From a virus (taxonomy: Duplodnaviria > Caudoviricetes), in IMG/VR virus record IMGVR_UViG_3300014204_000153, positions 1 through 64,000 of that record: DNA of 64,000 nucleotides. One strand, 5' to 3'. Positions 17,027-61,621 of this stretch are shown one piece after another (position 1 is the first letter of the stretch; each line of letters starts with the position of its first letter). The notes beneath the pieces are model-generated. The model made no database searches and was not told where the DNA came from. It worked only from the letters and a program-made list of their open reading frames with translations. Both the position numbers and the translations under genes were made by a program.

Positions 17027-17287
17027 TTGAGTCTTCCAAATGCGAATATTTTAACAGATGAAAACATTAGAGGTAATTCTGTCAAAGTTACTTATAATGA
17101 TATAGGTTTACCAACCATAGTAGATGCATTTGCTCCTGGTGGAACGACTACTATATTGGTTACTTATTCTGGTGGAACTGGTAATGTTACAGATATGAAT
17201 AGATATCTAAATGGTCAACAGGTGGAGTCTTCTTCTGTTACCTACGGCACATCGGGAATTACTCTATTAGACAACACCTGGATTTGA
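17027..17287 (+). CDS. small structural protein
   Basis: TTG start after GGGG; G/T/S-rich beta-type sequence in late operon. Confidence 0.5.
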   Translation: MSLPNANILTDENIRGNSVKVTYNDIGLPTIVDAFAPGGTTTILVTYSGGTGNVTDMNRYLNGQQVESSSVTYGTSGITLLDNTWI

Positions 17288-17302
17288 GGGAGAAAAATTA
17301 GT

Positions 17303-42618: not shown

Positions 42619-42894
42619 ATGAGAGAAGAATTATTCGCTGAATTTGATGATAGACAAGGCGATGCAGCTACAGTAAAATTACAAACTTGGGAAAAGCTTG
42701 GAGTATTATCTAGATACTATCCATTTATGGTACGAAAATATCTGTTCAAAAATATACTTGGAAAAGTTTACGTTATACCACCTGGAATTATAAGTGCTGA
42801 AAATGTTAGAAGATTTGAAACAGAAAAGTTTTATAAATTAACTTCAGATCAAATATTCGCCCTAGCTGAGGCGCATGCAAGGAGAAAGAGTTGA
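42619..42894 (+). pseudogene. C-terminal half of split gp2-like gene
   Basis: MREELFAEF...W..L....YYPFMVRKYL...I...VYVIP aligns to the second half of the 42021 protein. Confidence 0.75.
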
Positions 42895-45800
42895 GAAAGT
42901 CTAGCAGAAAGCCTGGCGGTCCTTACAGGACGAGAAAACCAACAAGAGCAGAAAAAACTATGTCTGCCGCTTCTGGTGCTTCCGCTAGAGAATTCTCCGA
43001 AATGGACTTTGCTACACCAAATGTGAAGAAACATTCTTTAAGAGATCCTTTCAGTGGAAGATATACAACTGCTGCTACTCTATCAGAAACTATGAGAGAT
43101 GCAAGATCTTATGCTGCAGCTTCTATGGTAAAGATTAGAGAAACGATGAGCAAGCTTCAACTTTCTATATTAAAAGCAACATCTGAGACTAATCGTGCAG
43201 CTAAAGATGCTGCTGAAAAAGCTTTAAAGAAGTTTGAAAAAGCAGATGAAAATTTTACAGAAGTATCTAAAGCACTTTATTCTGGAGCAGAAAAAGCTGG
43301 ATCAAATGTAATAAAGAGTGTTCAACTTCTTAGATCTGAAATAGAATCTCTTTCAAATAATGTAGCAGAATTATCAAAAAATGGAATATCTTTAGACGAA
43401 TCAGATGTAAGTAATATGATATTAGCTGTAAAAGAAAAAACCCCTGGTTCTAAAGTTGATGTAGCAGATATATTAGTTCCAGTACAAGATAGACAAGAAT
43501 CAAACAGAGATAAATTAACTGACGTAATGGATTATGTTACTACTGTTCTTGAAAATGATATAGCTAATCATTTAAAGAAAAGAATAGAATCTGGATTTAT
43601 TAAAGATGTAGCTTTAAGAAAGACTTTAAGAGAACAAGTTCTCGGTGAAACTGAAAAACAAGATCGCCGGGGAAGAATGCATATATCGAAATTTGTTGAA
43701 GCTGGAGAAGATGCTTATCTTCCATCTGTATCACAAGCTGTATCTGAAATGAAGAAAGAAATAGCTAATGTTTTAAGTGGTGGAGATACGGCTAAAGCTG
43801 CTGAAAGGTTTACAGATTTAACTGAAGATGCTTTTAAAAGATTAGATAAGATCTTTTCAGAAGAATCAGGATATCTTGCTAAAAATCCTGGTGTAGAAAA
43901 AAGAGATATTGGTATAGCATCAATAGCATCAAGTGTAAGAGATTTAAAAGAGCAGTTTTATGTAAATCAAGATGAATCAACAACCGGAACATCTTCAAGT
44001 ATATCTGAAGAAATAGCAGAAGCAGTTCTTGGAAAAAATAGAAAACTTAGAATAACTCCAGAAGCTGAAGAAGCTTTAGCAAATGCATACAGTGGTAGAA
44101 TGAGTAAAGTTTCAGATTATATAATGTCTGCTGCTAATCTAAGTAAGAAAGAATTTGAAGCAGTTGATAATGCTAAGAAATTAACATCAGAAGCTCCAAG
44201 TGGAGATTATGCTCAAGTTTTGTCCGAAATATTCTCAGAGATGGTTCAAGCAAGAGTAGATAATCCAGATGCAGCTTCAGCTTATGAAGAAGTACATAAA
44301 TTATCTGAAAGTTTATATGCTGTTTATGATTTAATGAAAGATTCAAATGATGCTACAGATGAAGAACTTGAATTTTTTAAAGATAAACTTGGACCTTCTA
44401 TAGATAATTTACTTGATGAAACAGAAAAAGCTAAGAAATCAGAAGATAGTTCAAGAAGAAGATCAAAAGTTATTGAAACTATAGCTTCAGCTAGTGGAAT
44501 TCCTATACTTGAGGATATAGTTGAGTTCTTCTCATCTAGAAAAGATAAACAAAGTAAAGAAAGAGCTGAACAATTAGAACAAAAGAAATCTGCTGCTGAA
44601 AAGATAATGGAAGCATACCAGACTAAAGTTATTTCTAAAAAAGATAAAAATAAGTCAGATTATTTTTCTAAGTATGAAGAATCTATGCCAGAAAAAGCTG
44701 ATGCTGGTGAAATTCTTCAATCAGATGAAGAGTCTAAAAAAGAACAAAAAAGAACTAATTCAATTTTAGAAGATATACGTGAAATCTTTAAGAGAAATGA
44801 ATCTGCTCCTGATAATGAAGAAAATAAAAAGAGCGGAATAATTGATTCAACTCTTGGATATATGGCTGGAGCTAAAGGTCTTAGTATGGTTAGTAAAGTT
44901 GGAGCTGTTATTGCTATGTCTTTAATTCCAATCATTGCTGGTGCATTAGCATATTCTATTACAAAAAAGGTAATTGGAAATAAAGAAGAAAATGAAAGAG
45001 AAAAGAAAGAAAAGTTCTTAGCTTTGAAAGAACAATCTCCTGAGTTATTTGCTGAAGCTGAGAAAAGATATCAATCTGATTTAGCAACTGCTGAAGCTGA
45101 TGCAAAGAAATTCTCACCAGTCTCAAGAGAAGCAGGAGAAGCAAATAAGAAAGTAGCTGCTCTTAGAAGAGATAGAGAATCACAAATAGTTTCAAGAGCT
45201 GAGAAAATAGCTGGAGAAATGGGAATTGAAGCTCCAACTGCTTCAGATGTAATAATCAGAAGAGATTCAGATACTAGTCCAAATATGGGTCTTAAGATAG
45301 GTGATCCTAAAAGAAAGCCTGAGATAATAGTTAAAGATGGTGTAAACTTTGAAGGTCTTCATCCAAATATAAAGCAAGGATTATTTGAAGCTGCTAAAGA
45401 GATGGCTCAAAATGGTAAAGTTTTAAGAATTACATCAGGACTAAGATCTCGTGCTGAGCAAACTGAATTATTTGAAGCTTATAAAAGTGGAAAAAGTAAA
45501 TATCCAGCTGCATCTCCTGGGAGTTCTCCTCATGAGTCAGGACTTGCTTTTGATATAGATAAAGGAAATATACCAGCTTTTACTCAGACCGCTGCTTTTA
45601 AAAATTACTTCGATCAGCCTTTACCAGGTAATGATCCAATTCATTTTGTTTTTAAGGGAGCTAAATTAAATACTGAAACTGAAGCAGTTGCTCAGACTCC
45701 AGAGAAACCAGAAGTTCCTATTTCTTCAGTATATAATAAGACTGAAGTTGCTGCTCAGACTCCAGAGAACCAAAATACTTCAATTCCACCAGTATATAAA

Positions 45801-46103
45801 CCAGAAACAAGTGAAGCAAAAATAGACACCCCACCAGTTGTAACAGATGGAATATCTTTTGAAGATAGAATGAGTCAGATAGAATCTGAGAATGTAAGTT
45901 TATCAGCAATAAAAGAAAGCGAATCTGCTAAAGAAGCAGCTTCAGCTGCGGCAACAATAATTCCAGTACCAGTTCCATCAGGTCAATCTCAGTCTTCTCA
46001 TAGCAGACAATCTGGACAATCCAGCCAACAAGTATCATCTGGACTTGAGAATGATTTGACAGTTCAACATATAGTGTTGTTCACTCTAGATAGGGTAATA
46101 TAA
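42891..46103 (+). CDS. tape-measure/baseplate-hub (gp29-like) protein with M15 peptidoglycan peptidase domain
   Basis: Long helical charged region, hydrophobic GxxxG stretch, LRITSGLRS..EQ..L...ASPGSSPHESGLAFDI (VanY/M15 SxH...D). Confidence 0.75.
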   Translation: MRKSSRKPGGPYRTRKPTRAEKTMSAASGASAREFSEMDFATPNVKKHSLRDPFSGRYTTAATLSETMRDARSYAAASMVKIRETMSKLQLSILKATSETNRAAKDAAEKALKKFEKADENFTEVSKALYSGAEKAGSNVIKSVQLLRSEIESLSNNVAELSKNGISLDESDVSNMILAVKEKTPGSKVDVADILVPVQDRQESNRDKLTDVMDYVTTVLENDIANHLKKRIESGFIKDVALRKTLREQVLGETEKQDRRGRMHISKFVEAGEDAYLPSVSQAVSEMKKEIANVLSGGDTAKAAERFTDLTEDAFKRLDKIFSEESGYLAKNPGVEKRDIGIASIASSVRDLKEQFYVNQDESTTGTSSSISEEIAEAVLGKNRKLRITPEAEEALANAYSGRMSKVSDYIMSAANLSKKEFEAVDNAKKLTSEAPSGDYAQVLSEIFSEMVQARVDNPDAASAYEEVHKLSESLYAVYDLMKDSNDATDEELEFFKDKLGPSIDNLLDETEKAKKSEDSSRRRSKVIETIASASGIPILEDIVEFFSSRKDKQSKERAEQLEQKKSAAEKIMEAYQTKVISKKDKNKSDYFSKYEESMPEKADAGEILQSDEESKKEQKRTNSILEDIREIFKRNESAPDNEENKKSGIIDSTLGYMAGAKGLSMVSKVGAVIAMSLIPIIAGALAYSITKKVIGNKEENEREKKEKFLALKEQSPELFAEAEKRYQSDLATAEADAKKFSPVSREAGEANKKVAALRRDRESQIVSRAEKIAGEMGIEAPTASDVIIRRDSDTSPNMGLKIGDPKRKPEIIVKDGVNFEGLHPNIKQGLFEAAKEMAQNGKVLRITSGLRSRAEQTELFEAYKSGKSKYPAASPGSSPHESGLAFDIDKGNIPAFTQTAAFKNYFDQPLPGNDPIHFVFKGAKLNTETEAVAQTPEKPEVPISSVYNKTEVAAQTPENQNTSIPPVYKPETSEAKIDTPPVVTDGISFEDRMSQIESENVSLSAIKESESAKEAASAAATIIPVPVPSGQSQSSHSRQSGQSSQQVSSGLENDLTVQHIVLFTLDRVI

Positions 46104-46944: not shown

Positions 46945-48849
46945 ATGGCTATAAATTTTCCTAATTGGTTTAATACATTTAAAAGAAAAAGTCCAGCTAT
47001 AGGACCTGAGAACGTTTACAATCCAGTTGTGACTACAAGAGATTATTCTGATGTAGGTGTTGATAGTTCATTCCAAAAAGGTGATATGCTAGCCGCTACT
47101 GGACTATCATATCCCACCGTAGTTGGTTCGAATTCTGTTACAAGCATGGGTGGATTTTTTGGAGGTTACTTCTCCTTTAGTGGATGGCAAGGTTCATTTC
47201 CACTTCATGTTATGCACAGCTTGGTAAGACTTTATTTATGGATGGGTCAAGATCCAGATATAAGATATGCTATAGATGAAATAGTTAATGAAGCAGTTTC
47301 GACAGCATATAATAATGATATAGTTAAGATAGATTTAGATAGTGTAGAAATGCCAAAGTCAATTAAAGAAAGAATATCAGACGAATTTGGTGGTATTCTT
47401 GATATGATGGAATTCAAGAGGAAATCCTACTATCACTTCAGTGATTTCTATACAAACGGCAGAATATTTTATAAATTAGATGTTAGTAAGAAAAATGCTA
47501 AAGCTGGAATTAAAGGGATAAAAAACTTATCACCATTTGATGTTATAGCATATTTCGATGGTCAGAATAATGTATTCAGAGATCCAGAATCTGTAAAGAT
47601 AGATTTTAAAAGAGGATATGTTCTTACAGAAAATGCCTTTAGAAATGCTTATTATCTTGGTATGACTAATCCAGCTGTAGCAGCTGGTACTCCAAGGATG
47701 AGTAATTATTATGTTGCCGTTCCTGAAGAATTGGTAGTTTATCAGCACACTGGATTATCTGACTGGCGTTCAAATGTTCCAATATCATATCTTCATCTTG
47801 TACTAAGGACTCTTAATCAACTTAGAAACCTTAGAGATGCTATGATAATTTATAGAATGACTAGAGCTCCTGAAAGATTTGTGTTTAATGTTGAAGTTGG
47901 AAAAATGCAAGCGGCTAGAGCTCAGCAATATGTAGCAGAAGTAGCATCGAAACTTAAGCAGACTATAAGTTATGTTCCAGAAACCGGTCAGTTTAAAGAC
48001 ATGGAAGAAAAGCTTCAGATATACAAAGATTGGTATTTCCCTAAGGTAGACGGCAAAGGTACAGATGTAGACGTTCTTCAGAGCGGTAACATGCAGGGTC
48101 AGTTAGAGGAAGTCCAAGCTATTCGGAAGGACCTGTTCATGCAACTGTTCATCCCTCCGAACAGATATATTGATGATCATTCAATGATGAACTTCGGTTC
48201 CATGGGAGACATGGAGAAGTCAGAAGTAAAATTCTTCAAGTTCATATCTAGACTTCAACTACAGTATAGTTCGGTATTTTATGATATGTTAAGAATGCAA
48301 CTTAGTATGAAAAATATTATGACTGCTAAAGAATTTGATAAGATAAAAGGTTCTATAAAGTTCTCTTGGGGTTCAGAGAACGTATACAGCGAGGCTAGAA
48401 ACTTTGCTGTTATGCAAAGGAAAGCAAGTGTTCTTGGTCAGTTTGAAAATTACATTGGATCATATGGCATATCTGAAGATTGGATTACGAAGAATGTTAT
48501 GGGATTCACTGATGAGGAAATAAAAGATAATGAAAGTACAGTTTTAGATTCAATGAAGAAAAAGAACTACCGCGACAGAATTAAGAATGGCCAGATATTG
48601 TTCGATGAGAATGGTAAAGAAATAAAAGATCCGTATGGAACAGGTGGTGGTGGAATGGATGCTAGTGGTGGTGGAGAAGCGCCCGCAGATGGTGAAGAAG
48701 TTCCACCTGAAGAAGGTGGTGGAGAACAACCAGAAGGTGAAGCTGGAAATGCAGAAACGTCTGGAGAAGATAAAGAGAAGACTGAAAGCGTATTAATAGT
48801 TAAATCTAGATTTAAGGATCTTCTGTTAGAGAGGTTAAAAGATAAATGA
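46945..48849 (+). CDS. gp20: portal vertex protein
   Basis: AIDEIVNEA, FY.NGR.FY, SYLH...R.LNQLR.L.DA..IYR.TRAPER..FNVEVG.M...RA.QY, GT.V..L.G, SEVKFFKFI.RL. Confidence 0.95.
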   Translation: MAINFPNWFNTFKRKSPAIGPENVYNPVVTTRDYSDVGVDSSFQKGDMLAATGLSYPTVVGSNSVTSMGGFFGGYFSFSGWQGSFPLHVMHSLVRLYLWMGQDPDIRYAIDEIVNEAVSTAYNNDIVKIDLDSVEMPKSIKERISDEFGGILDMMEFKRKSYYHFSDFYTNGRIFYKLDVSKKNAKAGIKGIKNLSPFDVIAYFDGQNNVFRDPESVKIDFKRGYVLTENAFRNAYYLGMTNPAVAAGTPRMSNYYVAVPEELVVYQHTGLSDWRSNVPISYLHLVLRTLNQLRNLRDAMIIYRMTRAPERFVFNVEVGKMQAARAQQYVAEVASKLKQTISYVPETGQFKDMEEKLQIYKDWYFPKVDGKGTDVDVLQSGNMQGQLEEVQAIRKDLFMQLFIPPNRYIDDHSMMNFGSMGDMEKSEVKFFKFISRLQLQYSSVFYDMLRMQLSMKNIMTAKEFDKIKGSIKFSWGSENVYSEARNFAVMQRKASVLGQFENYIGSYGISEDWITKNVMGFTDEEIKDNESTVLDSMKKKNYRDRIKNGQILFDENGKEIKDPYGTGGGGMDASGGGEAPADGEEVPPEEGGGEQPEGEAGNAETSGEDKEKTESVLIVKSRFKDLLLERLKDK

Positions 48850-49742
48850 AATTTTATCAAATAACAGAATCTATTATATCAGATAAGAAAAATCTTTATG
48901 ATAAATCTCCATCTGATATAGCTAAATTCTTTGTAGAATCTAGTGGAAGAAAGTTAGATGTAGCTAAGTCTAGATTAACTTTCTGGAGAAATAGACTTAG
49001 AACAAGAGATAAAAATCCAGAAATAGAAAAGAAGTACAGAGATGCTTTAAATATTATAAATCGAATGGCTGGAAGAAGTTTAAGAAGTAAAGGACATACT
49101 GATAATGATTTAATAAGAAAAACAACAGATGATAGAAAATATCTTATGGCTATTTCAGAGCTTAAAAAAGAAGCAAAGAGATCTGGAAAATATGTATCAG
49201 ATAAAGAAGCAGGAAATATAATATCAGCAGTGTGTGAATTTACAAGAACTGACTATGCTGATATAAGAAAATATCAAATAGCTGATAATCCAGAAAATTA
49301 TAACGATACTTTTAAAAAATACTCAGAACAAATTGAAAAATATATTTCTTTAATGCCAAAGTATAAAGATGGAACTGTTTATAGAGGTATACAAGTAGGA
49401 AGTTTTGGTGAACCAAAAGATATAAAAAAATTTGCATTTTTGAAACCAGGTGATGAAATAGATATGCGTGGAACATCATCTTGGAGTAGTAAAGAAGATG
49501 AATCACATGTTAAGAGAAGAAATATTAAGTTTGTTTTAGAAAAGCCTTTAACTGGAGTATCTGTTAATTTAGTTTCTGAGTTTCCAGCTGAAGATGAAGT
49601 TACTTTTTCTAAAGATTCTAGATTTTATGTAAAAAAAGTTAAGCTCAAAAAAGATCCGGAGCTGTCTGGAGATTATGATGAAAATTCAGATAATTATTAT
49701 TCTTTTATGCATGTTTACATATATGTAGAGGAAAAGGAATAA
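48846..49742 (+). CDS. ADP-ribosyltransferase (R-S-E clade) with putative capsid-targeting N-terminus
   Basis: VYRG, TSSWSS, EDEV; N-terminal MKFYQITE and shared helical module. Confidence 0.8.
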   Translation: MKFYQITESIISDKKNLYDKSPSDIAKFFVESSGRKLDVAKSRLTFWRNRLRTRDKNPEIEKKYRDALNIINRMAGRSLRSKGHTDNDLIRKTTDDRKYLMAISELKKEAKRSGKYVSDKEAGNIISAVCEFTRTDYADIRKYQIADNPENYNDTFKKYSEQIEKYISLMPKYKDGTVYRGIQVGSFGEPKDIKKFAFLKPGDEIDMRGTSSWSSKEDESHVKRRNIKFVLEKPLTGVSVNLVSEFPAEDEVTFSKDSRFYVKKVKLKKDPELSGDYDENSDNYYSFMHVYIYVEEKE

Positions 49743-49748
49743 TTTAAT

Positions 49749-50678
49749 ATGAAATTTTATTTTATATCTGAATCTATAATATCAGACAAGAAAAAGCTAT
49801 TAGATAAAAATCCAATAGAAATAGCTAATTATTTCATATCTTCAAGTAATAATAATATCCAAGCTGCTTTAAATAGAGCAGTCTTTTGGAGTAATAGAAT
49901 AACTTCAGATAGAAAGAATAGTTTTCAAGATAAAGAAAAAGTAAGAAAAGTAGTAGATATAATAAAATCTATGATAGGAAAAGTAAGTATTACTGGTCAT
50001 CATAAAGATGTTTTTGATCAAAATAAAGAAATTCATTTTTTTAAAAATAATGATCAACATGATGAAAAAGATAGATTAAAACATGCAAGAAAATTAATCA
50101 TTTCTGATGCAAAGAAAAATGGTTATAAAATAAATGAAGATCATGCATATGATATGATAAAGTCTGTGTATGATTTTACTGATTCAGATTATGAAGTTAT
50201 GAGAAAAATTCAAAGTGATCCAAATTTTAAATATAATGAAGATGAAAAAGATAAATTAAAATTAAAAAGTAAATATATAGAACAATTTATAAAAATGTCT
50301 CAAAAATTTTCTGGAAATACAATATATAGAGGTTTAGAATTTGAATTATATAAAAGTTTAAAAGAAACATATGAAAAAAATATGAAAATAGTTAAAGGTT
50401 TTTCTGAATTAAAAGAAGGTGAAGAAGTAAATATGTTAGGTACTTCTTCTTGGACTAGTAATAAAAATGAACGTCATGTAAAAGAAAGTAATATTATTTT
50501 TATATGTAATAAACCAAAAAACGGAGTACCAGTTAATCATGTTTCTAGATATCCAAAAGAAGATGAAGTTATGTATTCAAAAGATGCAAGATTTATAGTT
50601 AAAAAAGTTGAAGTTAAAAAGAATAAAGAAGGTGATATAACAAAGATAAAAATCGAAGTTGAAGAAAATAACATTTAA
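49749..50678 (+). CDS. ADP-ribosyltransferase, tandem paralog
   Basis: IYRG, TSSWTS, EDEV; MKFYFISE N-terminus; very AT-rich. Confidence 0.8.
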   Translation: MKFYFISESIISDKKKLLDKNPIEIANYFISSSNNNIQAALNRAVFWSNRITSDRKNSFQDKEKVRKVVDIIKSMIGKVSITGHHKDVFDQNKEIHFFKNNDQHDEKDRLKHARKLIISDAKKNGYKINEDHAYDMIKSVYDFTDSDYEVMRKIQSDPNFKYNEDEKDKLKLKSKYIEQFIKMSQKFSGNTIYRGLEFELYKSLKETYEKNMKIVKGFSELKEGEEVNMLGTSSWTSNKNERHVKESNIIFICNKPKNGVPVNHVSRYPKEDEVMYSKDARFIVKKVEVKKNKEGDITKIKIEVEENNI

Positions 50679-50692
50679 TATATGAGGGTATT

Positions 50693-50974
50693 ATGAATTA
50701 CTCTGAAAGAGAAAAGTCAAGAGCTAAATCTGATAGAAATATAAAAGTTACTTCTCCAGACGGTAAAGTTATCATAGATACTTCATCATTATCGAATAAA
50801 AAGACTAAGTTTAGCGATATACTAAATTTAAAATTGAAAATAGAACGCAATCCTAGTGATGGATCAAAAAAGTATTGGATAACTGGACCAAAAATATTTT
50901 TTGAATTTCCAGATGGTACTACTGAAGATGAAGCAAGAGAAAAGTTGAAAGAAATGAAGAAAGGGAAGAAATGA
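50693..50974 (+). CDS. hypothetical basic protein
   Basis: GAGG RBS; ATGA coupling to next gene. Confidence 0.6.
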   Translation: MNYSEREKSRAKSDRNIKVTSPDGKVIIDTSSLSNKKTKFSDILNLKLKIERNPSDGSKKYWITGPKIFFEFPDGTTEDEAREKLKEMKKGKK

Positions 50975-51357
50975 AATTTAGAGATATCATAGAAGATGAA
51001 GGTGGAGAAGCTTCTCCAGCTGTTAGTACTATTACTACTGATGATATAGCTCAGTTTGGAGATAGAATTGGAGCAAAGAAGAAAAAGAAGCCTCCCATCG
51101 CTAAGAAACCTCTTGTCAACTGGAGAAAGAACCATGTAGAAGTAGAATCGCTAGTCGCGGAAAGAGATTACAGCGAATTCGACGATCTAAAGTCTGCTTA
51201 TCCAGCTAAAGATTCTTACTCTATTTTTACTGAAACAGATCCAGCGACGAAAGTAAAAAGATACATCATAGAGAAAAACAACAAAATAGTCTTTGGTCCG
51301 ACCACTGACGAGAAAGCTGCTAGGTCTAAGCTAAACGATCTTAGAACAAAAAAATAG
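50971..51357 (+). CDS. putative internal head protein
   Basis: MKFRDIIEDEGGEA start; K-rich patch. Confidence 0.6.
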   Translation: MKFRDIIEDEGGEASPAVSTITTDDIAQFGDRIGAKKKKKPPIAKKPLVNWRKNHVEVESLVAERDYSEFDDLKSAYPAKDSYSIFTETDPATKVKRYIIEKNNKIVFGPTTDEKAARSKLNDLRTKK

Positions 51358-51403
51358 GATATAATGGAGTAACTAAACATTATTACTTAAAGGAATTATT
51401 AAA

Positions 51404-51676
51404 ATGAAATTTAAAAATATTCTTTTAGAAACATCTAAAATTAATGATTCAGAGAAGATTATAACTAAAGAAAGACTTAATAGTGGAAATTCTAATGGAT
51501 TAGTTAGAGAACTGATAAATAAGGCTGAGAACGACGGCTCAAAAAATCCATATGCTTCTGCTCTTAGAGCTATTAATGATTATGTCTTGAGAAATAAAGA
51601 AAAACTTTCTCCAGAAGAAATGAATGTTCTAATTAGAGCTAGAAGATCATTGAGAGCAACAATAGGAAATTATTGA
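51404..51676 (+). CDS. putative internal head protein, DUF3175-like helical domain
   Basis: MKFKNILLE start; PYASALRAINDYVLR...L.RAR..LR resembles the DUF3175 consensus as recalled. Confidence 0.5.
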   Translation: MKFKNILLETSKINDSEKIITKERLNSGNSNGLVRELINKAENDGSKNPYASALRAINDYVLRNKEKLSPEEMNVLIRARRSLRATIGNY

Positions 51677-51713
51677 TTCTAAGGATAAGTATAAAGAAAA
51701 GAAAAGAGAAGCA

Positions 51714-51738
51714 ATGAGAAAACCTCCACTGAACCAAA
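51714..51738 (+). repeat. 25-bp duplicate of the gp4 gene start (second copy 51981-52005)
   Basis: ATGAGAAAACCTCCACTGAACCAAA exact at both sites. Confidence 0.9.
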
Positions 51739-51768
51739 ATTATAAAAATATAAAATAGGAGATCTAAT

Positions 51769-51984
51769 ATGAAGTTCGTACAGATGATGGAAGATGATAA
51801 TAGCAGATTCAAAGAACTTACTGACAAAATAGCAGAGCTTAAAGGAGAAATGAATAGTAATCGTGGATCTGGGGCTGGGGCTGGAGAGCAACATAACCTA
51901 ATTAAAAGTGATTACATCTATTATAAGAATGAATTAAAAAACCTTAAAGAAAAAATGAAATTGAAAGCAAAGACTACTAAATGA
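51769..51984 (+). CDS. putative internal head protein (coiled coil)
   Basis: AGGAG RBS; MKFVQMMED start; sits between the 25-bp duplicates. Confidence 0.6.
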   Translation: MKFVQMMEDDNSRFKELTDKIAELKGEMNSNRGSGAGAGEQHNLIKSDYIYYKNELKNLKEKMKLKAKTTK

Positions 51985-52439
51985 GAAAACCTCCACTGAA
52001 CCAAAGAGGTAGAAGAAATGTAAAAAGAGGTGTATATATACTCATACACCCAGAGAAATACATTGGAGATTGTAACAATGTAATTTATCGTTCAGGATTA
52101 GAACTTGCATGTTTTAAATTTCTTGATGCTAATTCAAATGTTAAAAGATGGGGAAGCGAAATTGTTCAGATTCCATATTTAGATGCAAGTACTGGAAAGA
52201 AAAGAACTTACTTTGTCGATTTATATTTTGAATCAATAACTTTAAATGGTTCAACAGATAAAGTCTTGGTAGAAGTAAAACCGTCTAATCAGACAATTCC
52301 ACCAAGATCAGATATGAAGAATTACAGAGCAGCTGCAGCTGAGTATGCTAAGAACATCAGCAAGTGGACAAGAGCTAGAGAATGGGCTTCTCAGAACGGT
52401 GCAAGATTTGAGATTATAACCGAGAAGGAAATACATTAA
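51981..52439 (+). CDS. gp4: head completion nuclease gp4-like
   Basis: P.KY.GD...VIYRSGLE..CF.FLD.N..V..WGSE...IPY......R.YFVD......LVEVKP..Q. Confidence 0.9.
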   Translation: MRKPPLNQRGRRNVKRGVYILIHPEKYIGDCNNVIYRSGLELACFKFLDANSNVKRWGSEIVQIPYLDASTGKKRTYFVDLYFESITLNGSTDKVLVEVKPSNQTIPPRSDMKNYRAAAAEYAKNISKWTRAREWASQNGARFEIITEKEIH

Positions 52440-52948
52440 TGAAATTCTCAGCAATCCTTGAAGAATCTATGTCTTTAGAATCTTATAGAAAATTCTCTAA
52501 AAAATTCTTTGATAAACTTCCAGAAGATATTAGAATATCTATAAGTCATTATTCTGGAATGGGTTCTAGAGCTGTTAATATGTTTCTTACTTCTGGAAAT
52601 GCTGGTAGTGGATGGCCAAAAGATTTATTAAAAAAGATAATAAAAGACATAGAATCAATTTCTCAAAATAATGCACTTAAGAATAGTATAGTTGTTTTTA
52701 AAGGAGTAAAATACAAACCGAAGGTTGGAGAAAGTTTAAAGACTCCTGGTTTTATCAGTACATCTGTAAGTAAAGAGATAGCTGAATCTTTTGCTGGATC
52801 AGATGGAACAGTTATAATGATAAATCTTCCAATTGGTACAAAAGCATTCCCAATTCCAAATTCAGAATTCGAAATGCTTCTATCAAAGCAATATCAAATA
52901 AAAATAATTAAATATGATAAAAATATAGCAATTGGAGAATTAAAGTGA
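52439..52948 (+). CDS. VIP2-like ADP-ribosyltransferase
   Basis: Y.G.....VN..L, VFKG (R replaced by K), GFISTS, EFE; MKFSAILEE start. Confidence 0.75.
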   Translation: MKFSAILEESMSLESYRKFSKKFFDKLPEDIRISISHYSGMGSRAVNMFLTSGNAGSGWPKDLLKKIIKDIESISQNNALKNSIVVFKGVKYKPKVGESLKTPGFISTSVSKEIAESFAGSDGTVIMINLPIGTKAFPIPNSEFEMLLSKQYQIKIIKYDKNIAIGELK

Positions 52949-53619
52949 AATTCTCAACAGTACTTAAATCTAATGAAAAGCCTCTTTATTCTGAGACACC
53001 AGATAAAATAGTTAATCATTTTTTAAAATCTTCTAAAAATGATAAAGATATTGCTTTAAAAAAATTCATATTTTGGTCTAATGGTCTTAAAAAGAAACTT
53101 AACTATCAAAATAATAAAATATATGTATATAATGTAGAGACTGCTAAAAAGATATTATCTAAAAAAGATGAAGAGCATGAAAATTCTAAAATAGATTCTA
53201 TGATAAATAATTTTAATTTTTCTGAACGAACTAAAAATAGTGTAAAATTAGCATTGGAAACTGGATTTAATTCTTTCTCAAAAACAAAGCTTAGTGATGA
53301 AGAACAGTCATTTATAGATTCGCATGTTTCTGGAGATCCTAAAACAGAAAAAATAAAACCAAAATTACTTAATAATGTTAAACATCCAGTTTCTGTATAT
53401 AGAGCATATAATGATTCTGATATAAAAAAAGATACATTCATTTCTTTTACTTTAAGAAAAGACTGGGCAGAAAATACAGCAAATGATAATGATCTTAAAG
53501 TAATGAAGTTAAATCTTATAGTCGGAGATAAAGTTTTATTTGTTCCATTCTATAATAACAAACATATAGTAGAAGTAGAAGTACTTATTCCAAGTAACTT
53601 AGTTAAAGAAAGAAATTAA
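52945..53619 (+). CDS. ADP-ribosyltransferase-like domain on shared helical N-module
   Basis: VYRA, FISFT...WA, EVEVLI. Confidence 0.65.
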   Translation: MKFSTVLKSNEKPLYSETPDKIVNHFLKSSKNDKDIALKKFIFWSNGLKKKLNYQNNKIYVYNVETAKKILSKKDEEHENSKIDSMINNFNFSERTKNSVKLALETGFNSFSKTKLSDEEQSFIDSHVSGDPKTEKIKPKLLNNVKHPVSVYRAYNDSDIKKDTFISFTLRKDWAENTANDNDLKVMKLNLIVGDKVLFVPFYNNKHIVEVEVLIPSNLVKERN

Positions 53620-53645
53620 TAAAATATAGCAATTGGGGAATTAAA

Positions 53646-54344
53646 ATGAATAAATTCTCAGCAGTACTTAAATCTAATGAAAAGCTCCTTTATTCTGAGA
53701 CACCGGATAAAATAGCTAATCATTTTCTAAAATCTTCCGAAAATGATAAAACTGCTGCTTTAAAGAAATTTATATTTTGGTCTAATGGTCTTAAAAAATT
53801 AAACATTACAAAATATGATTTTAATATAGAAACAGCAAAAAAAATATTATCATCTAATAATAATGATAAACCGTGGAATGAAATACAAAAATATAATGGG
53901 ATGGATGTAGATAAAGAAATGAATCAAAATATAATGGATAGACTTAATTCTAAAACTCATATAATTAGTGTTTGTAGTGGACATCCTAAAGATTCTAAAT
54001 TAGCAATTGATGCAGGTGCATCAGAATATCCTCATTTTATATTTAGTGTTTATAATCCAAGGGATTTTGAAAAAACAGTAGAATATATTAAATCTAAATT
54101 AAAATCAAAAGATACAAAAATTAATGCTCATGCATGGGGAGGACCATATGGAAATTGGGTTGTTTGGAATGATAAAGAAGGTTGGAGAAATCATAAATTT
54201 CCAGAAGATCCTCAAAAATATAAAATAGACCATATTTCAATTACTGTTGAATCAACTATAGCACATAATGGAAAAAATCAAAAAATGTTAAATAATTGGT
54301 GGGAATTAATTACAAATAAACTAGAAGAATTGGATAACATATGA
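53646..54344 (+). CDS. shared helical N-module fused to unrelated C-domain (SxCSGH motif)
   Basis: First about 170 nt near-identical to 52945 gene; C-terminal D.E....I...LN.....ISVCSGHP. Confidence 0.65.
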   Translation: MNKFSAVLKSNEKLLYSETPDKIANHFLKSSENDKTAALKKFIFWSNGLKKLNITKYDFNIETAKKILSSNNNDKPWNEIQKYNGMDVDKEMNQNIMDRLNSKTHIISVCSGHPKDSKLAIDAGASEYPHFIFSVYNPRDFEKTVEYIKSKLKSKDTKINAHAWGGPYGNWVVWNDKEGWRNHKFPEDPQKYKIDHISITVESTIAHNGKNQKMLNNWWELITNKLEELDNI

Positions 54345-54766
54345 CATCAAAATTTTCAGCAATATTAGAAGATTTCGAAGCCAATGAAGATGGAGCTAAA
54401 AAGAAACTTGAGGCTCTTGAAAGATTATTGGTAAGAGTTGGAGCTAAACCAGGTGCTCAAAGAGTTCAGGCTCTAAATAATGAAAAGACAGAATTTAAGA
54501 CTCTGCTTTTCTTTAGAATGAATAATTCTAAAGGTGAACCTGTTGAACTAATGGCTGGTCATATAGATGGACAAAATAGAGCAAATAATTATTCTGTTCA
54601 TAGAAAAGATGGAACAACAAGAGCAGACAAGAACACATATATCGATGTCGTAAGAGATTCTCCAAAAGATGTTAAAGAAAAACTTCAAGAATTAGTTAAT
54701 AAGATGGCAAATATAAATGCTGGATTCAGAGAGAAACTTAATTCTCGTGGATGGAATAAAGAGTGA
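54341..54766 (+). CDS. putative internal head protein
   Basis: MTSKFSAILED start. Confidence 0.6.
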   Translation: MTSKFSAILEDFEANEDGAKKKLEALERLLVRVGAKPGAQRVQALNNEKTEFKTLLFFRMNNSKGEPVELMAGHIDGQNRANNYSVHRKDGTTRADKNTYIDVVRDSPKDVKEKLQELVNKMANINAGFREKLNSRGWNKE

Positions 54767-55002
54767 AATTTAAAGATACGATAAAAGGAATTAGAGATAT
54801 ACCACTTAAAAATGGTGGTTCTAGACTTGTACCAAGAAAAAATGGTAAATTTTCTGTAGCTAATGCTGGATGTAAAATATGCAATAGTTGCGGACAAATA
54901 ATATGCAAAGATACAAAGAATGTTGGTTCAGAACAATTTCCTTTCTTAAAAGAAACTTGGCCAGATAAATGTCCGTCTTGTGGAAATAAGGAATTTAAAT
55001 GA
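54763..55002 (+). CDS. zinc-ribbon protein
   Basis: CNSC ... CPSC; MKF start. Confidence 0.6.
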   Translation: MKFKDTIKGIRDIPLKNGGSRLVPRKNGKFSVANAGCKICNSCGQIICKDTKNVGSEQFPFLKETWPDKCPSCGNKEFK

Positions 55003-56195: not shown

Positions 56196-56359
56196 GCAAT
56201 AAAGAAGACGGAAAAGAACTTCACAGAGCGGCTCTTAATTGCGCAGCTAAAAGAGATTATGCTGGTTTCAAGAAGAATATCAATGACATAATGGAGAATA
56301 AGTTTGACGCTAAAACTACATCAATTGCGCCGACTTTTTTCACTAAAATCGAGGAATAA
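56192..56359 (+). CDS. small prohead core protein (gp67/68-like, positional)
   Basis: Immediately before protease; DY..FK..I..IM..K. Confidence 0.5.
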   Translation: MSNKEDGKELHRAALNCAAKRDYAGFKKNINDIMENKFDAKTTSIAPTFFTKIEE

Positions 56360-57027
56360 TGACTGAAAGAGACACTGCTCTATTCGAGTCATTCGGTGAA
56401 ACGGTTGTAGAAGAAGTATGTAATGAAGGTGAAGAAAAGAATTATTATCTTTCTGGATTGTACACCGAATGCGACGTAAAAAATGGTAACGGAAGAACTT
56501 ATCCTACCTCTATTGTTGAGAGGGAAATAAATGGAAAGATACTTCCAAAGGTTAAAGCTGGTACAGCTTTTGGTGAATTCGGCCATCCTAAGACTTTAGC
56601 TGAAATGCCAAGCATAGATCCATCAAGAATTGCTCACCGTATAGTAGAAATACAGAAAGAAGGGAATAATATTTTCAGAGGTAAATCTGTACTTGTTCCT
56701 GAAGGTCTTGGTAAAGTAGCTATTGCAATGGTTAAAACTGGCGGTGTTTTATCTGTTTCATCTAGAGGTGTTGGTAGAGTTAATAAGCAGACTGGAGTTG
56801 TAGAGAGCAGCTACAATATGTTTACGTATGATGTAGTGCTAAATCCAGGAATGAAGAAAGCAAACCAAACAGCTGTCATGGAGAATCAAGAATTCTTCGT
56901 AAATCAGATTGGAGTGTTTACTGAGGAGGAGTGGTACAAAATTGAAAAAGATAGATCAAAAATGTTAGATGCTACATTCTTTAGAGCTGACCTTCTTAGT
57001 GGGTTAGCTGAAATAGCAAGGAGTTAG
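56359..57027 (+). CDS. gp21: prohead core protease
   Basis: KNGNGRTYP, AFGEFGHP, IAHRI, G.LSVSSRGVG, YDVVLNP. Confidence 0.92.
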   Translation: MTERDTALFESFGETVVEEVCNEGEEKNYYLSGLYTECDVKNGNGRTYPTSIVEREINGKILPKVKAGTAFGEFGHPKTLAEMPSIDPSRIAHRIVEIQKEGNNIFRGKSVLVPEGLGKVAIAMVKTGGVLSVSSRGVGRVNKQTGVVESSYNMFTYDVVLNPGMKKANQTAVMENQEFFVNQIGVFTEEEWYKIEKDRSKMLDATFFRADLLSGLAEIARS

Positions 57028-57105: not shown

Positions 57106-57915
57106 ATGTCTAATAAAATAAAGACACTGTTCGATGAACTCAGAAGTAAGTACCCTGAAGTTATCTCAGAAGAGTTCGCATCGAAAGTTGTCGCAGTTGT
57201 AGAAGAAATCGTAGAATCAGAGAAGCAGAAAGCTATTGATGAGATTAGAGAAACTGAATCTGAAAAGATTCGTGAAGAAATCTCAGAGGAAGTAAAGGAT
57301 CAGTCTGAAAGTGAGATCGAGAAATTAGTTAATACTCTTGATGTATTCTGTGAAAATGCTGTCAATGAATTTTGTGATAGCAAAGCAGAACTTCTAGAGG
57401 AAGCTACTAAATCTACGATTAGCTCAGTTCTTGCTGAGAAGATGAAAGAAGTCTTTGAGACTTATGGTATTGTTACCGAGGAATCAGCTGAAGTTAAAGC
57501 TGATCTTGAAAAGCAAGTTGAAGAACTCAACGAAACTATCGGTAACATGGCTGATACTATTTCTGAACTCAGCGAAGAAAAGAAAAAGTCAGATGCTATC
57601 TCAGTCGTCGATGAATTCTGCAGTGAAATGAATATGACTGACACTGTCAAGTTCTATAAGCTGATTGAAGATTATGATATCGATGATGTTGATAGTTTCA
57701 GGGAAAAAGTTGAGTCTCTCGCTTCTGTCTTTGAACAAGGTAAAGAATCTGATGAAGACGAAGACGAGGATGAGGACGAAGATCCTGAAGATGGTGGTGG
57801 TAGGAAAGTTGAAAAGAAAAATATTAAAGATTCAGATGAAAAAGAAGATAAGTGCGAGTCTGATGACGAAGACGCTTCCTTCATCTCGAGAGTTAGAAAG
57901 AATCTTAAAAAATAA
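57106..57915 (+). CDS. gp22: prohead core scaffold protein
   Basis: Acidic helical; between protease and capsid; L..YL/FC.....EF...E..I. Confidence 0.8.
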   Translation: MSNKIKTLFDELRSKYPEVISEEFASKVVAVVEEIVESEKQKAIDEIRETESEKIREEISEEVKDQSESEIEKLVNTLDVFCENAVNEFCDSKAELLEEATKSTISSVLAEKMKEVFETYGIVTEESAEVKADLEKQVEELNETIGNMADTISELSEEKKKSDAISVVDEFCSEMNMTDTVKFYKLIEDYDIDDVDSFREKVESLASVFEQGKESDEDEDEDEDEDPEDGGGRKVEKKNIKDSDEKEDKCESDDEDASFISRVRKNLKK

Positions 57916-57976: not shown

Positions 57977-59494
57977 ATGGCAGATAAAAGGAAAGACATC
58001 GTTAAGGCTTATATCAAAGCGGTAGAAGCCGAAGACAACACCGCTTTTGCTAATTCAAGAGTTAAGCATATAACTGAAGTTGTTCTTGAAAACCAGATAG
58101 ATCATTACATCGAGACTTCTGGTAAGACTTTTGATTATATCGCTAATCAGATCCTTGGTGAAGACGGCACCCTGAATGAGACCGCGGCTGGTTCCTCATT
58201 CGCGGATGCTGACGTTGCTAAGTTCGCCGAGATCTATCTTCCGATCGCAGCTAAGGTTATTCCTTCACTAGTTATTAACAACATGGTTGGTGTTCAGCCT
58301 ATGACGCAGCCCAACGGGTTCGTGTATGCTATGCGCGCGTTCCATGCTAAATCTCCGTATGCTGAATCAACTGATATGCGTGGCATGCGGTACACCAATA
58401 CACAGATTCTAAACTTTGCGACGGCAACCTCCCTCGCGGTTGGATCTGGTAATTGTTGGTTCATCGCTTCAAGCGGTGCTAAAGGTTACTGCGTTCACAA
58501 AGAAGGTACCCTCGCTCTAGTTAAGATCTCAGATGAAGATACTCCGTTCGCTGCTGGTGACACTGCTACTATTGGCAGTTCATCTTCGGTTACTTATTCT
58601 ACTGCTGATCTTACTGTGCTTTCAATCTATAATAACGAAATTGCTCAGGCTGCCGGTCTGTTCAAGTACTTCTCAGGTTATACCAACAGTGGTTCAGCTG
58701 AAGGTTCCGCCGCGTTTAGTACTGATCAGGGTCAGTATCCTCAGAATGTTAGTGAAGTGCAGATCAGAGTTGAGAGAGAAGCTGTTGAAGCTAAGACCCG
58801 CCAGCTGTATGCTGAGTATCCGATCGAAGCCGAACAGGATCTTCGCGCGATTCACAAACGTGACCTAAGAGCTGAACTCTCTGAGATCACTGCTGGCGAA
58901 ATCGTTAATGAAATCAACTCCGAGTTCATCGCCAATATCAAGACTGCTGCTCAGATCGGTGGGTCAACGACCTTCGATATGGAATCAGCTGACGGACGTT
59001 GGGAAATTGAAAAATTCCGTTCACTGTGGGTCAGAGTTACACGTGGAGCTAATCAAATCGCTCAGGCAACTCGCTTAGGACCTGGTAACTTCATCGTTGC
59101 TAGCCCTGATGTTTGCACTGCTCTTAGTCAGCTCGACGGCTTTGCTGCTGCTCCTCCTAAGGGTGCTTTCGGTGGCATGAGTCCTATCGGTGGTGACTGG
59201 TATGTTGGTAAGATCGGTGGAACGATGGATGTTTACCGTGATATGTTCGCTACTACGGATTATATCTCTGTCGGTCGTAAGGGTTCCAATGAGTGGGATG
59301 CGGGCTTATTCTTCCTTCCGTACATTCCGCTACAGTTCATCGCAGGACAAACACCAGATAATTTACAGCCAAAACTCAAGTTCCTAACCAGGTATGGCAA
59401 GGTTGCTAACGTCTTGCGCGCCTCTTCCAGCCAGGTTGCGGATAGCCGCTATTACCGGTATATTGCAGTTCAGAATCTGTTCGCGAGTTACTGA
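57977..59494 (+). CDS. gp23: major capsid protein
   Basis: VGVQPMTQP.G.VYAMR, VEAKTRQL.AEY.IE.EQDLRAIH, EI..EIN.E, GLFF.PYIPL, TRYG. Confidence 0.95.
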   Translation: MADKRKDIVKAYIKAVEAEDNTAFANSRVKHITEVVLENQIDHYIETSGKTFDYIANQILGEDGTLNETAAGSSFADADVAKFAEIYLPIAAKVIPSLVINNMVGVQPMTQPNGFVYAMRAFHAKSPYAESTDMRGMRYTNTQILNFATATSLAVGSGNCWFIASSGAKGYCVHKEGTLALVKISDEDTPFAAGDTATIGSSSSVTYSTADLTVLSIYNNEIAQAAGLFKYFSGYTNSGSAEGSAAFSTDQGQYPQNVSEVQIRVEREAVEAKTRQLYAEYPIEAEQDLRAIHKRDLRAELSEITAGEIVNEINSEFIANIKTAAQIGGSTTFDMESADGRWEIEKFRSLWVRVTRGANQIAQATRLGPGNFIVASPDVCTALSQLDGFAAAPPKGAFGGMSPIGGDWYVGKIGGTMDVYRDMFATTDYISVGRKGSNEWDAGLFFLPYIPLQFIAGQTPDNLQPKLKFLTRYGKVANVLRASSSQVADSRYYRYIAVQNLFASY

Positions 59495-60912: not shown

Positions 60913-61314
60913 TTAGTTTTTTCTAAAATGTTCGATAGCAGAAAGAGATTTCTTCATCTGATTTTCATGGCCTTCAACTGGTTTTCTTCCAGCCGTTGTT
61001 CTAAAACCCCAACTATCTTTCTTTGATATAGTTGGATTTAACTGATATCTTGCGGTGCCTCCTGGTCTGTTTTTTGAAGGCTGATGCGAATTAAAACCGC
61101 CAGGTCGTTCTTTTTTATACCTAATTTCTCTACGATATGTTCCATCTGAATGATACAAATAAACTACATCACGATCATCATTGCTAGCTTTTGTATCAAG
61201 ATATGCTTTAATACCTTTGCTCTTTTGTTTATCTGTAGTAATTTCTTTCAGACCAATAGTCGAAAAATGGCCGTGTATATCTTTAGCCTCTTCTAATACA
61301 GTTTTAAATTTCAA
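60913..61314 (-). CDS. putative internal head protein (basic)
   Basis: AAGGAG RBS; MKFKTVLEEA start. Confidence 0.65.
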   Translation of the reverse strand: MKFKTVLEEAKDIHGHFSTIGLKEITTDKQKSKGIKAYLDTKASNDDRDVVYLYHSDGTYRREIRYKKERPGGFNSHQPSKNRPGGTARYQLNPTISKKDSWGFRTTAGRKPVEGHENQMKKSLSAIEHFRKN

Positions 61315-61621
61315 AACTCTTTCTCCTTAGAATTGAAGGATCTTTTTCTGGGTTTCTTATTTCTTCTTCTAATGATTTAATTGCTGCTCCAATTGATGAT
61401 TTAAACCATCCAGAAATCTTTTCTTTTCCAGATTTATTTTCACTGTTTGGAACCATAACATATGCTCTTATATCTCCATATCTTCTTTCATCAAATTTTA
61501 CTTTGTAATCTATTCCTTTATAATTTACTTTATGATTTGGAAGAACATCTCTAAGGCCACCCGGTCTCATTGTTTCATATTGAGAAAAATCACGTTCTTC
61601 TAACATATCTCCAAATTTCAT
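61304..61621 (-). CDS. putative internal head protein
   Basis: AGGGG RBS; MKFGDMLEE start; AATAAATA upstream on minus strand at about 61662-61673. Confidence 0.65.
   Translation of the reverse strand: MKFGDMLEERDFSQYETMRPGGLRDVLPNHKVNYKGIDYKVKFDERRYGDIRAYVMVPNSENKSGKEKISGWFKSSIGAAIKSLEEEIRNPEKDPSILRRKSFEI

Follow-up and report, generated by a model that had tools for sequence, protein, structure and literature searches.

Putative internal head proteins of a distant T4-like phage carry a DUF3175-like module between a capsid-targeting-like leader and exchangeable C-terminal domains

The closest described relatives of the system that is analysed here are two groups of phage proteins: the internal head proteins of phage T4 (IPI, IPII, IPIII and Alt), i.e. 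cargo that bears a capsid targeting sequence (CTS) and is processed by the prohead protease gp21, and the MuF polymorphic toxins (Jamet et al. 2017, PMC5576092), which are encoded by phages beside the portal gene and join a constant N-terminal part to variable tips, ADP-ribosyltransferases (ARTs) among them. The first ten residues of T4 IPIII are enough for loading into the prohead, and gp21 cuts after the motif L/I-x-E (PMC9026906); the T4 internal proteins are a diverse set, with this tag as their sole common feature (PMC3012670). It is established for T4 that capsid-targeting tags can carry ART cargo, namely Alt; in the T4 genome (NC_000866), both IPII and IPIII begin with MKTYQEFIAE. Here, we describe a locus where a comparable leader is followed by a second shared layer. 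The window, i.e. the whole stretch of DNA that has been analysed, is the first 64 kb of a single IMG/VR virus record (IMGVR_UViG_3300014204_000153; 85,247 bp, estimated completeness ~48%); judged from its genes, the phage is a distant T4-like myovirus. The island under study is the 7.5 kb that separate the portal gene from the protease gene, and our main subjects are four of its open reading frames (ORFs), 48846, 49749, 52945 and 53646, which we refer to as P1, P2, P3 and P4.

According to the explanation that we favour, and to which we assign a probability of roughly 60%, P1-P4 are internal head proteins of the T4 type: they would be loaded by their leader, trimmed by the S77 protease of the phage and injected together with the DNA, with their ART tips acting like T4 Alt.

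Leader, module and head genes

The first 8-9 residues of these proteins, MKF..(I/L/M)xE, make up a leader that is distinct from the module behind it; the leader was overlooked in the original prediction, i.e. the earlier reading of this DNA, which had described one helical N-terminal module ahead of interchangeable C-terminal domains. Thirteen ORFs of the contig start with MKF and a few more (2-4) start with small offsets (M-x-KF), far above chance: Phe occupies position 3 in 12 of the 33 MK-starting genes (p 5e-8), and of the 16 leader genes, 12 have an [ILM]xE that ends within residues 6-12, compared with 12 of the 108 remaining genes (p 2e-7). Since the codons of the leader vary (AAA/AAG, TTT/TTC), its conservation lies at the protein level. 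Twelve leader ORFs are located in the window (48846, 49749, 50971, 51404, 51769, 52439, 52945, 53646, 54341 and 54763, as well as 60913 and 61304 on the minus strand), and 3-4 further ones on the contig beyond it; the module-less ART 52439 and at least 11 other proteins that also do without the module bear the leader, their genes being situated around the portal, protease, scaffold and capsid genes. A tag that ends with L/I-x-E is present in P1 (MKFYQITE), P2 (MKFYFISE), ART 52439 and ORF 51404. The leader proteins are also uniformly basic (15 of 15, isoelectric point (pI) 9.0-9.9; the median for the remaining 109 ORFs is 5.9, p 3e-7); this charge fits internal head proteins, because it is expected for proteins that lie among packaged DNA. 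In the distant T4-like Paraglaciecola phage GD1, similar starts (MKSYQEFLVE and MKSFDEYFELQE) occur on genes between the portal and the capsid genes.

The common module of about 60 amino acids (aa) that had been proposed for the four ORFs is present in all of them as described: upon alignment, it corresponds to a segment of 63-69 aa (residues ~10-80), directly behind the first ~10 residues, with 11 columns that are invariant across P1-P4 (K, L, P, I, F, S, S, A, F, W, N). A hidden Markov model (HMM) of the module, the first check that the original prediction had suggested, marks exactly four places (E 1e-30 to 1e-35), with no fifth copy anywhere in the 85-kb contig. P1 (298 aa, 48846..49742, plus strand) consists of the leader (48846-48869), the module (48882-49085), a linker and an ART domain (~49203-49739); P2 (309 aa, 49749..50678, plus strand), a full-length paralogue of P1, consists of the leader, the module (49785-49991) and an ART domain; P3 (224 aa, 52945..53619, plus strand) has the leader-like start MKFSTVLKSNE, the module (52972-53172) and a divergent ART-like C-terminal domain; P4 (232 aa, 53646..54344, plus strand) has the leader-like start MNKFSAVLKSNE, the module (53676-53864) and an orphan alpha/beta C-terminal domain. 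One helical module ahead of interchangeable C-terminal domains is thereby borne out, with three kinds of tips across P1-P4.

In the AlphaFold models of P3 and P4, which were built on the four-sequence alignment, the module forms three helices (predicted local distance difference test (pLDDT) 70-87). It is strongly basic (pI 9.5-10.6), and its dN/dS of about 0.3 suggests purifying selection on the sequence. Helical structural matches of the CopN/MxiC type, obtained in the PDB with VIA-align at Z 5-6, are within the noise, and the module profile has no match among the PDB sequences.

The head genes that surround the island are of the T4 type. The portal protein (gp20 family, 46945..48849, plus strand; Portal_T4, 5e-103) is encoded directly upstream of P1; past the island follow the prohead protease of the T4 gp21 family (Peptidase_S77, 56359..57027, plus strand; 64.2 bits, cut-off 27), which is the presumed remover of the leaders, and the scaffolding core protein of the gp22 family (57106..57915, plus strand; T4_CASP, 1e-18, 68.3 bits), which is their presumed docking partner. 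Both a protease and a scaffold gene are thus found, and a match to phrog_207 (1.4e-38) supports head machinery of the gp21/gp22 type. The major capsid protein (Gp23 family, 57977..59494, plus strand), ~31% identical to the capsid proteins of cyanophages and T-even phages, contains an L-N-E site in its N-terminal propeptide region, ~10 residues away from the position that is aligned with the T4 L-T-E|A maturation site; like the charge of the leader proteins, this site fits the internal-head-protein reading. A gp4-like head completion protein (51981-52439) is encoded within the island.

Compared with the T4 internal proteins, the likeness extends over the portal, S77 protease, scaffold and capsid genes, the short tag (MK(T/F)YQ..I.E, ending with L/I-x-E, though not in P3 and P4) on unrelated basic proteins, the presence of ARTs among the cargo (Alt) and a gene set that varies between relatives. 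The differences are as follows: the tag of the present phage has 8-9 residues and is diverged (MKF..ILE), and its packaging is a prediction; the set is far larger, with 12 leader ORFs in the window and 3-4 beyond, including four ARTs of three subtypes; the cargo genes are located between the portal and protease genes; and four members have the additional DUF3175-like domain behind the tag. Scans of T4 IPII/IPIII, of GD1 and of the related contig that is introduced below show no second shared layer behind the tag.

Relation of the module to DUF3175

The original prediction had named the family DUF3175 (PF11373) as resembling the module, and here profile-profile comparison (hhalign) and pairwise tests confirm this likeness. 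The four modules have no Pfam match to PF11373 at E <= 10; our reference was an alignment of 45 ORFs from bacterial loci with the motif FYINRAGK, 45 of 45 being PF11373 members (best E 1e-45). Against this alignment, hhalign gives 52.8% for the profile of the four modules, 65.8% for the single outside relative of the module (P0010, see below) and 82.5% (E 1e-5) for ORF 51404; when the P0010 copy is added to the module profile, the value becomes 91.2% (E 1e-6, 64 columns), with the motifs P..IA and F(Y/W).NR in register. The hhalign score of 37.8 compares with 11.0 +/- 2.7 (maximum 19.5) in 150 column shuffles, 0 of 150 reaching it (~10 standard deviations), and with 8.7 for the reversed module profile. 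At the pairwise level, the module of P1 matches a 319-aa fusion protein of the Xanthomonas jumbo phage PhiXhv-15, which has a DUF3175 domain verified by Pfam (43.3 bits): across 71 residues, the module and this domain are 31% identical (Smith-Waterman z 8.5, BLASTP E 3e-4).

On these sequence comparisons, we regard the module as a divergent DUF3175 domain without the RRK loop: it shares with the family the same helix pattern and the motifs P..IA...S and A...L.F(Y/W).NR, but lies below the Pfam threshold and lacks that loop. A further difference concerns the setting, since typical members are stand-alone bacterial proteins of ~90-130 aa (the cellular members are nearly all stand-alone, at 75-150 aa), whereas in this phage the domain follows a CTS-like tag and is joined to enzymes.

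ORF 51404 (90 aa, 51404..51676, plus strand), which had been taken for a stand-alone version of the module, has MKFKNILLE as its leader and, behind it, a weak stand-alone DUF3175-like domain that scores 18-19 bits (18.9) against PF11373, below the cut-off of 27. That claim holds in so far as the ORF is a weak DUF3175 relative by hhalign, but direct comparisons (Smith-Waterman) reveal no similarity between ORF 51404 and the module itself.

Outside the contig, the module is nearly absent. A HMMER search of 1.84 billion representative proteins has returned P1-P4 themselves, low-complexity noise and one outside relative, P0010, a 200-aa protein on a 2-kb contig, where the module is C-terminal (hhalign 95.9%). 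Pattern scans for the module yield no relative in IMG/VR or in GTDB genomes, and P1 has none in IMG/VR; word-based homologue searches with the P4 C-terminal domain, the P0010 module and ORF 51404 return the queries only, and tblastn of ORF 51404 and P0010 against plasmids gives no match. The tabulation of fusions across phage databases that had been proposed was accordingly possible in small part only: a table for the module itself cannot be built, given how few copies of it the databases contain.

The DUF3175 genes of other phages offer a partial comparison. The fusion protein of PhiXhv-15 and its relatives consists of 83 aa, the DUF3175 domain and a 164-aa domain that is unrelated to any C-terminal domain of this contig, and is encoded near a head-tail connector gene; stand-alone copies are located two genes past the portal gene in BcepSauron and next to a virion structural protein gene in BCSR5. 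As a separate observation, the first ~13 residues of the latter two proteins (BcepSauron gp253, L134 2399-2668; BCSR5, L133 2399-2689) end with A-T-E or S-S-E. The prohead protease motif of phiKZ-like phages is S/A-x-E (PMC9026906); since both starts match this motif, these proteins may, as far as their sequences tell, also be processed head proteins.

C-terminal tips, duplication scars and other genes

The sequence of tips that had been proposed (ART, ART, a different ART-like domain and an unrelated domain) is upheld by Pfam and motifs for P1 and P2, by the alignment with ART 52439 for P3, and by the orphan status of the P4 domain. The ART of P1 is of the R-S-E type, matching PF03496 (ADPrib_exo_Tox) with 31 bits, above the cut-off of 23.4, with the motifs YRG (49377-49391), TSS (49470-49484) and EDE (49590-49601) on the plus strand; that of P2 has the same YRG, TSS and EDE motifs and scores 21.8 bits, just under the cut-off. 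The two proteins are paralogous over their full length (42-45% identity). The tip of P1 also bears a weak resemblance to an ART from a Porphyromonas phage, where it is the tip of a “minor capsid protein” of the MuF type (E 4e-3; phrog_595).

P3 has no Pfam match. Its C-terminal part aligns with ART 52439 at a Smith-Waterman z of 5.1 (0 of 500 shuffles as high), with VYRAY over VVFKGV, FISFT over FISTS, and the Arg, Ser and Glu-x-Glu motifs in register (in P3, YRA 53395-53409, SFT 53440-53454 and EVE 53572-53583, plus strand); in the ESM Atlas, the structural neighbours of the P3 model are ART families (template modelling (TM) score 0.57-0.65). It is because of this alignment and these neighbours that we describe the tip of P3 as a different ART-like domain. 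BLASTP shows no relation between P3 and ART 52439, which is visible only by shuffle-calibrated Smith-Waterman comparison, and hhalign shows none between the P1/P2 ARTs and either P3 or ART 52439.

The C-terminal domain of P4, with VCSGH at 53970-53984, is an orphan: it has no match in Pfam, PHROGs, NCBIfam, a word search of 5.8 billion proteins, the Atlas or a PDB-wide structural search, where VIA-align gives no match at Z >= 7. NCBIfam has no match for any protein of the island.

A fourth ART, which was left out of the original prediction, is ORF 52439 (169 aa, 52439..52948, plus strand; PF03496 3.8e-12, 46.4 bits; STS and EFE motifs), with the leader MKFSAILEE and no module. Together with P1, P2 and P3, it brings the island to four ARTs of three subtypes, among which it is the best-scoring. 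Its residues 61-121 have weak phmmer matches to RNA polymerase alpha C-terminal domain (CTD) chains (9zum_A, E 0.024; 7ye1_A, E 0.5), probably by chance; the RNA polymerase alpha CTD is a target of T4 Alt and ModA.

Directly 3' of the P1/P2 ARTs, a leaderless ORF of 93 aa (50693-50974) is a candidate immunity or regulatory partner. No immunity gene is recognisable: ORF 50693 and others have no family match in Pfam or PHROGs.

The DNA around P3 and P4 retains the trace of a tip exchange. A segment that extends from the last 28 nucleotides (nt) of the ART gene 52439 through the start codon into the sequence that encodes the module (52920..53093, plus strand) recurs at 53621-53797 with 90-93% identity, which fades by about 53170/53870; the repeat thus measures ~175-250 nt at ~90% nt identity and begins 28 nt upstream of both start codons, and beyond the shared module P3 and P4 diverge into unrelated sequence. 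Since the repeat contains the last codons of ART 52439, the copy ahead of P4 was taken from the P3 locus. Read from the DNA, the scar is that of a duplication of tag and module, followed by replacement of the tip. A perfect direct repeat of 26 nt from the start of the gp4-like gene (51713-51738 and 51980-52005) flanks ORF 51769; it is a fresh insertion scar that left this essential gene intact.

Portal-based searches have led to a single related contig, L006 (portal 60% identical), which has two leader ORFs between the portal and the gp4-like gene, none between the gp4-like gene and a conserved 400-aa protein, and neither P1-P4 nor the ARTs. From the content of L006, it follows that P1, P2, 51404, 51769, 52439, P3, P4, 54341 and 54763 are either gains in the present phage or losses in L006. 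L006 also contains a pair of paralogous ORFs, each of ~495 aa and with many Cys-x-x-Cys motifs (12699-14183, between the protease and scaffold genes, and 17162-18655, past the capsid gene), neither of which is in the window; by their sequences, they look like mobile insertions of the endonuclease type.

The remaining leader genes of the window encode basic proteins, as follows: ORF 50971 (MKFRDIIE; 128 aa, 50971..51357, plus strand), which is conserved in L006 and is a candidate core or internal protein; ORF 51769 (MKFVQMME; 71 aa, 51769..51984, plus strand), i.e. the ORF flanked by the 26-nt repeat; ORFs 54341 (MTSKFSAILE; 54341-54766) and 54763 (MKFKDTIK; 54763-55002), both on the plus strand; and two ORFs past the capsid gene (MKFKTVLEE and MKFGDMLEE; 60913..61621, minus strand). 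Elsewhere in the window, a 1070-aa protein (42891-46103), encoded just upstream of the tail-tube-cap-like and portal genes, has a VanY/peptidase M15 cell-wall hydrolase domain at residues 823-899 and is, by this domain, a candidate virion-borne lysin. Positions 1-2000 have a GC content of 46.6%, compared with ~32% in the remaining window, a composition that is foreign to the remainder.

Weighing of the readings

While the homologies, the charge bias, the arrangement of the sequence elements and the traces of recombination have been observed directly, it is from these that we infer packaging, cleavage, injection, enzymatic activity and a function for the module. The proposed course of events is the following: each protein would begin with the short MKF..(I/L/M)xE leader as the local form of the T4 capsid targeting sequence; the leader proteins would be made late, along with the head genes; by means of the leader, they would dock on the scaffolding core of the gp22 type; the S77 prohead protease (gp21 type) would cut after the Glu at position 8-9; and the basic mature proteins would stay with the DNA inside the head and be carried into the host along with it, where the ART domains of P1, P2, P3 and ORF 52439 would ADP-ribosylate host targets, as T4 Alt does. 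The three-helix, basic DUF3175-like domain of ~65 aa would form a second layer of P1-P4 behind the leader, with new tips joining it by duplication and recombination in the island between the portal and protease genes. The module itself would most likely be an adaptor that binds nucleic acid or the capsid interior, serving either retention or co-ejection, or the delivery of the tips to one common host site; in favour of this role are its strongly basic character, its expected place at the N-terminus once the leader has been cut off, and the recurrence of phage DUF3175 genes in structural blocks.

Several points weigh against this explanation. The source is an uncultured metagenomic contig of the IMG/VR database, about half complete as estimated above. 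P3 and P4 have no canonical L/I-x-E in their first 12 residues (VLKSNE), and neither do ORFs 54763 and 66118. ART 52439 has a Lys (VFKG, 52694-52708) aligned with the catalytic Arg of binary-toxin ARTs (5gtt_A) and may, judged from this residue, be inactive or Lys-using, and the AlphaFold models of the C-terminal domains of P3 and P4 are unusable (pLDDT about 30). As for DUF3175, the stand-alone gene of phiM9 is situated among early genes, not head genes; about 60 bacterial loci show no recurring gene partner; the family has no known structure, a PDB search with DUF3175 profiles being empty; the literature searched contains no mention of it; and the role proposed for the module is drawn only from its basic charge and position.

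The module was originally compared with the carrier domain of the MuF toxins, and the present data bear on a reading where the DUF3175-like module itself is the carrier, docking on the portal or scaffold as in MuF, while the MKF leader is incidental. Such a reading would account for the constancy of the module ahead of three kinds of tips, for the series of P1-P4 genes that starts directly after the portal gene, for the weak likeness of the P1 ART to that of the MuF-type Porphyromonas phage protein, and for the fact that, in three lineages of jumbo phages, DUF3175 genes neighbour a portal or structural gene. We consider it unlikely: ART 52439 and at least 11 other basic proteins of the head region have the leader and no module, it is the leader that matches the experimentally defined T4 tag (PMC9026906), the module is C-terminal in P0010 and internal in PhiXhv-15, and most DUF3175 proteins stand alone in cellular genomes. 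The comparison with MuF stands for the site beside the portal gene, the constant N-terminal part, the variable tips and the weak likeness of the P1 ART. The differences are these: Phage_Mu_F (PF04233) is absent from the Pfam matches of P1-P4 at E <= 1, the genome is T4-like with an S77 head module and not temperate siphovirus-like, no immunity gene is evident, and the constant part combines a CTS-like tag, which is the better candidate address, with a DUF3175-like domain of 65 aa. The analogy is fair for function (virion-borne, with variable tips) and fails as membership; as an address, it probably fails too.

It is about equally improbable that the proteins are ordinary cytoplasmic effectors that are never packaged, with the MKF start reflecting a translation-initiation preference or a duplicated 5' end. 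With 33 of 124 ORFs, MK starts are indeed frequent in this AT-rich genome, the 5' ends of P3/P4 and of P1/P2 are demonstrably duplicated, and P3, P4 and 54763 are without a clean L/I-x-E; yet the leader occurs with varied codons on otherwise dissimilar proteins, which are uniformly basic unlike the remaining proteome, its genes are grouped near the head genes, on the strand of the late genes, and T4 and GD1 have similar leaders at the corresponding place in their genomes.

Least probable of all is a regulatory or targeting module that silences the ARTs while they are still in the cell that makes them, or steers the four tips to one host partner, since, even though the polar residues among the conserved ones (SS, N, K) point to a binding surface and the module is kept under purifying selection on catalytic tips of differing kinds, ART 52439 does without it (if active at all), no partner is known and DUF3175 has no conserved neighbourhood.

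Returning to the T4-type internal head proteins, a generalisation from P1-P4 to the family would make DUF3175 a binder of nucleic acid or of the capsid interior, which in large phages serves as a second-tier, ride-along adaptor behind a cleavable tag, with swappable tips; this we put forward as a tentative and rather doubtful extension. New in this phage are the DUF3175-like middle layer fused to enzymes, a tip exchange that has been caught in the DNA, and the first contextual lead on DUF3175.

Effectors that are loaded into the capsid are the first phage proteins to meet the host defences, and by the leader, the proteins that an uncultured T4-like phage probably injects can be recognised in its sequence; the scars show how new cargo arises, i.e. 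by duplication of tag and module and replacement of the tip. DUF3175, which occurs in many bacterial lineages, is now tied to phage head-region proteins and to enzyme fusions, so that its function becomes testable; if the adaptor reading is true, P1-P4 would represent a distinct modular architecture for effector delivery and would provide the first function for a widespread bacterial domain.

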